Positions 1 through 282 of a DNA stretch of 6,958 nucleotides are shown piece after piece. The number at the start of each line of letters is the position of its first letter. Positions within the stretch are counted from its first letter, which is position 1. Position numbers and translations under genes: made by a program. The notes beneath the pieces were generated by a model. That model was not told the DNA's origin, made no database searches, and saw only the letters and a program-made list of their open reading frames with translations. The stretch is from the IMG/VR virus record IMGVR_UViG_2554235127_000007. The stretch is one strand, 5' to 3'. Origin of the DNA: a virus (Duplodnaviria; Heunggongvirae; Uroviricota; Caudoviricetes).

Positions 1-282
1 CTACCTTTGCCTCTTGCCGCCATTTAACCGGAAGGCGTTACCGTTCGGTTGCGCTATCCCCATGCGGTGTTGCGTTTCGGTAACAGCTTTATGCAGGTCG
101 CCAAAGTCCTCAACCTTCACGGGCGGGCGCTTCACGTTCTCCAGACACGTTTCACGGCGGCGCTTTATCCATTCCCGATCATCGTCCTCGGTGCATAACA
201 GCATGACTTCCATCCATCGTGCGGCAGCTCTCCGGTATAGCCCTTTTGACTCCAGCTCTTCAGCTTTCCTGTCCCTTATCAT
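1..282 (-). CDS. Small regulator, PerC-family-like (93 aa), transcribed divergently from the RHH gene
   Basis: ATG at 282-280 and TAG at 3-1, so the gene is complete and ends exactly at the window edge. AGAGG Shine-Dalgarno about 6 nt upstream on the minus strand (complement of 288-292). The protein contains GLYRRAAARWMEV followed by KRRRETC and RPP, which I recall as the signature of PerC/Pch-type small activators; this is from memory and not searched. The opposite-strand ORF 14-376 is low-complexity (Ser/Arg-rich) and is rejected. Confidence 0.55.
   Translation of the reverse strand: MIRDRKAEELESKGLYRRAAARWMEVMLLCTEDDDREWIKRRRETCLENVKRPPVKVEDFGDLHKAVTETQHRMGIAQPNGNAFRLNGGKRQR

Follow-up and report, generated by a model that had tools for sequence, protein, structure and literature searches.

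Described PerC-family regulators and the satellite EcCIMP1

The PerC protein (BfpW) of EPEC is encoded on the pEAF plasmid in the perABC operon, together with perA and perB, and activates LEE1. Its homologues in EHEC, the Pch proteins (the activators PchA-C as well as PchD and PchE), are described as products of prophages or prophage-like islands that act on horizontally acquired genes silenced by H-NS (PMC4764244), with PchE as a repressing PerC homologue that represses curli and flagella (PMC6265319). Pch proteins have no homology to known DNA-binding proteins and activate LEE1 only where H-NS/StpA/Hha silence it (PMC4764244). As PchA did not co-precipitate H-NS (PMC4764244), a direct interaction with H-NS is not established for this branch of the superfamily. 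Another group of small regulators, the ANR (AraC negative regulator) proteins, comprises proteins of 39-80 aa (<10 kDa) with three predicted helices and a highly conserved Cys (PMC4038620). The activity by which an ANR protein is recognised is down-regulation of an AraC-family activator and/or binding to H-NS.

PerC alleles are also reported as common cargo of Gram-negative PICIs, whether the host carries LEE or not (PMC6092414; PMC11773190). One such element is EcCIMP1 of E. coli MP1, a PICI of 19,963 bp located at tRNA-Thr between proA and yagU, which was excised, circularised and transduced by the P22-like phage Kapi1 (Pick, Stadel & Raivio, ISME J 2025, PMC11773190). Its PerC-family gene, EcCIMP1_025, was handled by these authors as an accessory gene (PMC11773190). 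When expressed from pTrc99A in C. rodentium, EcCIMP1_025 silenced a LEE1-lux reporter in a dose-dependent manner in both LB and DMEM, whereas perC of EPEC activated the same reporter in the same species, and Pick et al. suggested that EcCIMP1_025 may act like an ANR protein (PMC11773190).

The genes found next to perC at the locus described here also invite comparison with phage P22, where gene 16 is followed on the map by reverse-strand sieA, orf59a and mnt, and then by arc, ant and gene 9.

A PerC-family gene of the EcCIMP1 type

The window, i.e. the whole stretch of 6,958 nt that was analysed, carries at one end a reverse-strand gene for a protein of 93 aa (Table 1). The match of this protein to the PerC family is far beyond chance, with a score of 105.6 bits against Pfam PF06069 (PerC; E 1.7e-30, model positions 1-85 of 90), where the gathering score is 22.6 bits, and with a full-length match to PHROG 994 (E 1e-37). 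An earlier note on this DNA had placed the protein in the PerC family on the basis of a GLYRRAA-RW...RRR..C signature, and both are borne out, the signature by the sequence, which reads KGLYRRAAARW...RRRETC, and the family by the profile search. The signature belongs to the core that PerC-family proteins have in common, including their N-terminal KAE.LE.KGLYRRAA.RW motif. Among 23 homologues with 46-83% identity, residues K6, L10, E11, Y16, R17, R18, A19 and C46 are invariant, and homologues occur in Escherichia, Klebsiella, Enterobacter, Citrobacter, Salmonella, Pantoea and others. On identical DNA, RefSeq/PGAP gives the product name 'PerC family transcriptional regulator'. EPEC PerC (89 aa) belongs to the same Pfam family and shares 37% identity with the 93-aa protein over 75 residues, together with the pattern KA..LE.KG.YRRAA.RW.E.M. 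A plus-strand ORF at 14-376 (120 aa) that overlaps perC is regarded as spurious, as the Pfam match and the conservation across genera both sit in the minus-strand frame.

DNA of this perC gene is present in 630 of 5426 complete E. coli genomes, most of which are presumably LEE-negative. No PerC homologue with more than 38% identity was found among 50,697 sequenced phage records.

The protein is 99% identical to EcCIMP1_025 (WP_000617443.1, encoded at 10421-10699 of the MP1 sequence), with D59E as the only change in 93 residues. Based on related genomes, the two loci also share the island family, the position of perC near the distal end and the downstream genes. The upstream neighbour differs, being alpA_1 (xis-like) in EcCIMP1 and an RHH-like gene of 147 codons in the window. 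In addition to D59E, the window is set apart by other cargo between gene 16 and perC and by a 107-bp deletion that removes most of an iteron array.

A phage satellite with P22-like ejection genes

It is very likely that 1-282 is a perC-like accessory gene of an EcCIMP1-type PICI, a satellite of ~20 kb mobilised by Kapi1, and that it is not under an immI-type switch. Since the window stops before the primase, the integrase and the att site, the island context is deduced from genomes that are 97-100% identical to it in DNA; at least 80% of the window is covered in 164 of the 5426 complete E. coli genomes. In related E. coli genomes, the island begins at its integrase end with tRNA-Thr, the integrase, DUF6387 and a small AlpA-type HTH gene, continues with an AntA/AntB antirepressor, DUF4222, an ash-family gene, a TOPRIM/DUF927 (or DUF5906) primase and a gap of ~580 bp, and closes with the 53-aa ORF, genes 14/7/20/16, variable cargo, perC and three short ORFs. 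Beyond perC, these genomes have chromosomal genes or short island ORFs. Genes for capsid, portal, terminase, tail needle and tailspike are absent from the island in the related E. coli genomes, and neither arc, ant nor gene 9 adjoins the ejection genes at the perC site, AntA/AntB being located near the integrase end. The features by which a PICI is recognised are thus found in the near-identical genomes, namely an integrase at an att site, alpA, a primase with an iteron-flanked AT-rich ori, a size of ~15-20 kb and the lack of a full virion module.

Within the window itself, the marker of this context is the 53-aa ORF that occupies the place of the tail-needle gene 26 on the P22 map. It is 100% identical to the ORF following the primase/ori gap in a related E. 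coli island genome, and the identical protein accession is annotated in another related genome and in MP1. In view of this ORF and the island context in related genomes, the window is not taken as a fragment of a P22-like prophage, and genes 14, 7, 20 and 16 are the ejection-protein module of the island itself. From P22-like ejection genes in a short stretch of DNA, the presence of a P22-like prophage cannot be concluded. The island of the window would be expected to insert at tRNA-Thr (or near yicG/dinD), to be mobilised by Kapi1, and to carry its integrase, alpA, antirepressor, ash-family gene, TOPRIM/DUF927 primase and ori ahead of the ejection genes, the cargo and the distal perC.

Two further ORFs lie as accessory cargo between the ejection genes and the perC region; a PADLOC search with both gave no match. 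Neither an Rfam family nor a tRNA was found within the 6,958 nt.

Table 1 Features of the 6,958-nt window, with coordinates, strand and basis of assignment
Feature	Position	Strand	Basis and remarks
perC-like gene, 93 aa	1..282	minus	ATG 282-280, stop 3-1; EcCIMP1_025 allele (92/93 identical, D59E)
Shine-Dalgarno GAGG	291-288	minus	5 nt 5' of the perC ATG; read from the sequence
Degenerate -10-like AATAAT	301-296	minus	sequence reading, variant alignment, lenient promoter scan
Two TGAACCAAC 9-mers, remnant of ori-type array	303-311, 324-332 (303..332)	plus	variant alignment
Operator-like repeats GTATAAC-AGT-GTTATAC-AGT-GGTATACT	386..413	plus	sequence reading and cross-locus comparison
147-aa gene, probable DNA-binding protein	447..890 (RefSeq start); 435-890 (first ATG)	plus	divergent from perC
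73-aa ORF, hydrophobic C-terminus, accessory cargo	970..1191	plus	PHROG 6324 E 3e-11 (function unknown); weak holin match; RefSeq-annotated
146-aa ORF, N-terminal signal-peptide-like segment, accessory cargo	1619..2059	plus	RefSeq start; PHROG 2651 E 5e-22 (function unknown)
Homologue of P22 gene 16 (ejection / DNA transfer protein)	2122..4227	minus	PHROG 770 E 2.4e-155
Homologue of P22 gene 20 (ejection protein)	4227..5648	minus	Pfam Inj_translocase E 4.5e-58; PHROG 917 E 9e-112
Homologue of P22 gene 7 (ejection protein)	5648..6325	minus	Pfam P22_gp7 E 1.9e-72
Homologue of P22 gene 14	6319..6780	minus	Pfam DUF2824 E 2.3e-61
53-aa ORF, island-context marker at the place of P22 gene 26	6797..6958	minus	position by P22 map

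Relationship to ANR proteins and direction of regulation

The AF2 model of the 93-aa protein shows helices at residues 5-12, 16-29 and 33-51 (pLDDT 84-89), followed by a fourth helix at 61-73 and a basic tail. A Foldseek search of the model against PDB gave nothing at E<1, with weak MIT/TPR-like matches and no recognisable HTH or RHH fold, and a sequence search of PDB found no relative. Residues 5-50 match 46 of the 54 positions of the NCBIfam model NF033650 (ANR) with 31.4 bits (E 1.2e-7), 0.6 bits short of the curated cutoff of 32 bits. The closest relatives of the protein score 31.7-32.5 bits with this model, other PerC-family proteins 20-25 bits and EPEC PerC 18.2 bits, and the matches always cover the N-terminal ~45 residues. 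This gradation across the PerC family indicates that PerC and ANR are related, and by its scores the clade of the window protein is the most ANR-like of the PerC family, although a match to the ANR model alone does not separate activators from repressors. With ANR proteins such as Aar of EAEC, the protein shares the three predicted N-terminal helices, an invariant Cys (C46) and, through its twin, a negative effect on a virulence regulon. It differs in exceeding the described size range, in its extra fourth helix and basic tail, in scoring below the cutoff, and in a Pfam PerC score far higher than its ANR score.

As a small all-helical protein of a PerC/Pch/ANR continuum, the window protein would most likely alter nucleoprotein or activator complexes, be it H-NS-type silencing complexes or AraC-type activators, and classical repression by operator binding would be unlikely for it. 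Its targets would be AT-rich promoters of horizontally acquired DNA, with silencing as the net effect at LEE1; this is the mechanism preferred here, although chances appear evenly balanced that the protein works in this way.

It had been suggested that the gene encodes a host-directed regulator, which could be followed with a ler/LEE-type or other host reporter. In effect, such a reporter assay is already published for the 99% identical EcCIMP1_025 (PMC11773190). The twin does alter LEE1, as expected of a host-directed protein, but it silences this promoter and thereby acts in the direction opposite to activation by PerC/Pch. That result was obtained by over-expression from a plasmid in a heterologous host species, with a protein that differs from that of the window at residue 59 (D59E). 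Judged by the published EcCIMP1_025 result, activation of LEE1/ler, the function for which the family is named, would not extend to this clade. The clade would differ in this respect from EPEC PerC (PMC11773190) and from the group 1 Pch proteins of EHEC, which are activators that need silencing by H-NS/StpA and are likened to it here by description, not by sequence. Whether a protein activates or represses cannot be predicted from a match to the PerC family. The PerC annotation, the status as PICI cargo and the reporter effect of the twin are all already known, and a PerC-type regulator on this element as such adds little to them. As EHEC O111:H8 is LEE-positive and itself encodes the same LEE-silencing protein (EcCIMP1_025 type), its natural role can be tested there.

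Alternatively, the protein could primarily serve the life cycle of the satellite or its helper, for example in counter-silencing or in the timing of island or helper genes, with the effect on LEE1 being incidental to over-expression of a nucleoid-modulating protein. PerC alleles as common PICI cargo regardless of LEE (PMC6092414; PMC11773190), the presumably LEE-negative majority among the 630 E. coli genomes with perC and the homologues in Klebsiella, Enterobacter, Citrobacter, Salmonella and Pantoea would fit such a role, as would the full-length islands, in which the promoter region of perC is embedded in an ori-type iteron array. The treatment of EcCIMP1_025 as an accessory gene by Pick et al. 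speaks against it, and the available text of their paper reports no phenotype of a perC deletion for the PICI cycle (PMC11773190). A primary role in the life cycle is possible but rather doubtful.

The divergent 147-aa gene and its operator-like repeats

The gene divergent from perC, at a spacing of 164 bp, was previously described as encoding a Mnt-like repressor. In the AF2 model of its 147-aa product, an extended N-terminus is followed by helices at 13-26 and 30-42 (pLDDT 55-76), a long helix at 49-70 and a four-helix C-terminal domain (pLDDT ~93). Foldseek of this model against PDB gave nothing at E<1; TacA, AtaR, Arc, NikA and VapB appear in the list, all at E>1. Alignment with hhalign to P22 Mnt gave E 0.004 at a probability of 8.6%, with FRIPSEL in register with FRMPMEV of Mnt, and the alignments to P22 Arc (probability 5.0%) and to Kapi1_063 (0.3%) were not significant. 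Searches of Pfam, NCBIfam, PADLOC and PDB sequences with the protein found no significant family, and a profile search of PDB limited to its first 52 residues gave chance matches to L7Ae and no RHH protein. Sub-threshold matches of the C-terminal domain are consistent across the family, with HTH_62 matched in 21 of 23 members and Recombinase in 10. Taken together, the 147-aa protein probably binds DNA and consists of an RHH-like N-terminus (~5-42), a linker helix (49-70) and a recombinase-like HTH C-terminus (~78-145), where the model is suggestive only as to the RHH head. Of the supposed Mnt likeness, the predicted strand-helix-helix N-terminus thus remains, without significant similarity to Mnt or Arc.

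The family is spread over Enterobacterales, with 365 homologues in a first protein search and no Pfam domain, and the gene occurs in 360 of the 5426 complete E. coli genomes. No homologue was found among the 50,697 phage records.

Between perC and the 147-aa gene lie the operator-like repeats, the first part of which (386-402) forms a perfect 8-1-8 palindrome and the third unit of which overlaps a -10-like TATACT. These repeats follow the 147-aa gene through seven genera, whatever gene lies opposite. Ten loci with the 147-aa gene were compared and fell into two classes of five. In class 1 (E. coli, Salmonella, Serratia, a Klebsiella-like scaffold and Enterobacter) the protein starts with KS(N/S)L(I/V)AFR and the repeats read GTATAAC-N3-GTTATAC-N3-GGTATACT, located 61-63 bp upstream of the gene start in all five genera. 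In class 2 (Erwinia, two Pantoea, Buttiauxella and Pectobacterium) the protein starts with KS(L/M)SVTFR and the repeats, in the same place, read GTCTTAC-N3-GTCTTAC-N3-GGTAAAAT. The repeat sequence therefore co-varies with the N-terminal strand (residues 5-8) of the protein. This co-variation is the best evidence that the protein may bind DNA through its N-terminus, and it is supportive rather than proof, because the two classes of repeats correspond to two clades and so in effect to a single evolutionary change. The overlap of the repeats with the -10-like TATACT/TAAAAT suggests that the 147-aa gene is autoregulated through them.

The gene on the other side of the repeats differs at each of these loci; Salmonella, for example, has a 129-aa ORF there, the Klebsiella-like scaffold an AlpA-like gene and Pectobacterium an integrase. 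A divergent perC is missing beside the 147-aa gene in eight other loci (Salmonella, Serratia, Klebsiella-like, Enterobacter, Erwinia, Pantoea, Buttiauxella and Pectobacterium). Conversely, the PerC protein of EcCIMP1 and of EHEC O111:H8 adjoins an alpA/xis-like gene, and the 147-aa gene is not there. By this comparison of loci, the operator appears to belong to the 147-aa gene, with perC as an interchangeable neighbour, and the pair is no conserved unit.

Control of perC by its neighbour

In this variant of the island, the 147-aa protein could possibly repress perC as well. It would bind 386-413, autoregulate its own gene and also repress a leftward promoter of perC, for which TTGCAA-16-TAATAT at 447-420 is a candidate; transcription from it would begin immediately upstream of the repeats and continue across them. 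The fixed distance of the repeats from the 147-aa gene and their co-variation with its N-terminal strand are consistent with binding, the weak leftward promoter-like site overlaps the start codon of the 147-aa gene, and the pair does co-occur in E. coli, where window positions 1-1200 are present over at least 80% of their length in no fewer than 165 of the 5426 complete genomes. However, the leftward promoter scores 8/12 and is not conserved in other genera, the commoner long variant of the island places 107 extra bp before perC, the ori-like array included, and a better -10 (TATAAT) adjoins perC in the long variants. Repression of perC by its neighbour is therefore unlikely, and the use of the candidate promoter at 447-420 is no more probable.

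The far-reaching version of this idea, i.e. a P22-like prophage in which perC replaces arc/ant opposite a Mnt-like repressor and is thereby tied to an immI-like switch, can be given very little credence. The order of genes does mirror that of P22, with gene 16, reverse-strand genes and a divergent pair with operator-like repeats in between, the neighbour has a predicted strand-helix-helix N-terminus and probably an RHH-type head, and the P22 map after gene 16 makes the positional analogy drawn in the earlier note understandable, but the context largely refutes it: the element is a PICI that lacks capsid, tail, tailspike, arc and ant genes at the perC site, as well as gene 9, PerC does not belong to the RHH proteins, and the neighbour, at 147 aa, includes a recombinase-like HTH domain and is not significantly similar to Mnt, Arc or Kapi1_063. 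Of the proposed arc/ant place, the location with respect to gene 16 is what stands. Immunity-type control of perC is not supported, because the repeats track the 147-aa gene, which has its operator without a divergent perC in the eight other loci, and because perC occurs without that neighbour in EcCIMP1 and O111. The link to an immI-like switch falls as well, as the element is a satellite without immI; a true immI-like cluster resides in the helper Kapi1, where two Arc-family genes come after gene 16, with an anti-repressor and then the tailspike next in line.

The iteron array upstream of perC

Rather than by a P22 immI-type switch, perC is probably driven by a weak promoter beside an iteron array, as far as its upstream sequence tells. 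In EcCIMP1 and most relatives, the full array upstream of perC consists of three copies of GTTGGTTCA, an AT-rich spacer of ~45 bp and three copies of TGAACCAAC. Just downstream of the primase gene, related island genomes including MP1 have the array once more, again with this 9-mer, and an iteron-flanked AT-rich array after the primase is the canonical architecture of Gram-negative PICI origins (PMC6092414). The available text of the ISME J paper on EcCIMP1 makes no mention of iterons or an origin (PMC11773190). The array on the perC side is also found beside the 147-aa gene in a Salmonella island, and at least its half with three copies of TGAACCAAC in Pantoea.

In the perC region of the window, of one related genome and of MP1, the standard scans detected neither a sigma-70 promoter nor a terminator, and a lenient promoter scan gave weak sites scoring 8-9/12. 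By this lenient scan, the long variants have a perfect TATAAT 14-19 nt before the ATG of perC, its -35 falling inside an iteron. The 107-bp deletion, which is shared by the window and the genomes 100% identical to it, leaves two copies of TGAACCAAC and converts TATAAT to AATAAT before perC. Transcription of perC would thus start from a weak promoter that adjoins, or in full-length islands overlaps, a second ori-type iteron array.

The array on the perC side is a lead and not a finding. In full-length islands, where the perC promoter would sit within the iteron array and next to the operator of the 147-aa gene, expression of perC could be tied to the replication and regulatory state of the island, which is a rather improbable proposal. 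If it were true, occupancy by the initiator and/or the 147-aa protein would gate production of the PerC/ANR-like protein upon induction of the satellite, and in the window, as a natural deletion variant, perC would be uncoupled from induction of the island.

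The PerC-like protein and its relatives

The protein EcCIMP1_025 (WP_000617443.1), which silences LEE1-lux in C. rodentium and is identical to the window protein at 92 of 93 residues, was found in exact form in LEE-positive EHEC O111:H8 and O111:NM. A LEE-silencing protein and the LEE therefore naturally co-exist in these LEE-positive O111 strains. In O111:H8 02-3334, its gene lies within a degraded island at thrW that is devoid of the ejection module.

The gene itself is mosaic. Of the E. coli genomes that match, roughly one half have in common only the first ~84 nt of perC and the region upstream of it; beyond this point they carry a second perC allele encoding 95 aa with 54% identity (for example in L003, an island locus of E. 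coli HB37). This pattern suggests a recombination breakpoint within the gene, after helix 2 of the predicted structure. In HB37, the island is present in two tandem copies beside dinD/yicG, an insertion site distinct from thrW.

All PerC-family proteins tested (including P0009, P0019, P0051, P0074, P0088, P0093 and the one at L004 18487-18753) matched the NCBIfam ANR model at 18-32.5 bits, and in all of them the match was confined to the common N-terminal ~45 residues. PerC and ANR thus look like one superfamily under two family names. The curated ANR cutoff splits the clade that includes the window PerC-like protein.

Organization of the island

Islands of the EcCIMP1 type contain two ori-type arrays, one 3' of the primase gene and the other immediately 5' of perC, each composed of three copies of GTTGGTTCA, an AT-rich spacer and three copies of TGAACCAAC. 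A 107-bp deletion in the window has reduced the perC-side array to two TGAACCAAC copies. The doubled array is not mentioned in the EcCIMP1 paper (PMC11773190).

Within the window, the satellite also encodes a complete P22-type ejection set (genes 14, 7, 20 and 16) with very strong profile matches. The EcCIMP1 authors state that they identified no phage-like structural genes, and regarded these ORFs as possible packaging factors (PMC11773190). The adjacent 53-aa ORF (VKPVLIS...EKQMEAIKK...TLHEIARGLIDKAL) is 100% conserved between islands and had no family match among Pfam, PHROG and NCBIfam profiles; inspected by eye, its sequence looks like that of a strand-helix-helix protein.

Gene 16 and perC are separated by a cargo slot of variable content, with equivalents in L003, the MP1 locus L007 and database hits H48, H55 and H58. 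In other strains, this position is occupied by Abi-family, ImmA/IrrE or alpA_1/xis-like genes. The ORFs of the window gave no PADLOC match. Upstream of the 147-aa gene, the divergent neighbour of perC, repeats fall into two classes, GTATAAC/GTTATAC versus GTCTTAC/GTCTTAC, with equal spacing to the start codon. Across 10 loci from at least seven genera, repeat class pairs with the version of residues 5-8 of the 147-aa protein, NLVA versus LSVT.

Coordinates of island features in the window and compared loci
Feature	Locus	Coordinates	Strand	Remarks
perC, common part	window	199-282	-	
perC, allele-specific part	window	1-198	-	
EcCIMP1_025 gene	L014 (O111:H8 02-3334)	12001-12282		
Paired ori-type arrays	L007 (MP1)	10736-10856 + 19276-19396		
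Paired ori-type arrays	L002 (related E. coli island)	9319-9439 + 16758-16847		
perC-side array remnant	window	283-340		
Repeats of 147-aa gene	window	386-413		
Repeats of 147-aa gene	L008, L010	5938		
Repeats of 147-aa gene	L017, L018	2440		
Repeats of 147-aa gene	L015, L016, L019-L021			5' of gene start
Cargo slot	window	447-2059		147-aa gene, 73-aa membrane ORF, 146-aa signal-peptide ORF
Ejection set	window	2122-6780	-	
53-aa ORF	window	6797-6958	-	between ori gap and gene 14
Tandem island copies	L003; L006 (HB37)	8797-24915; 1-14001
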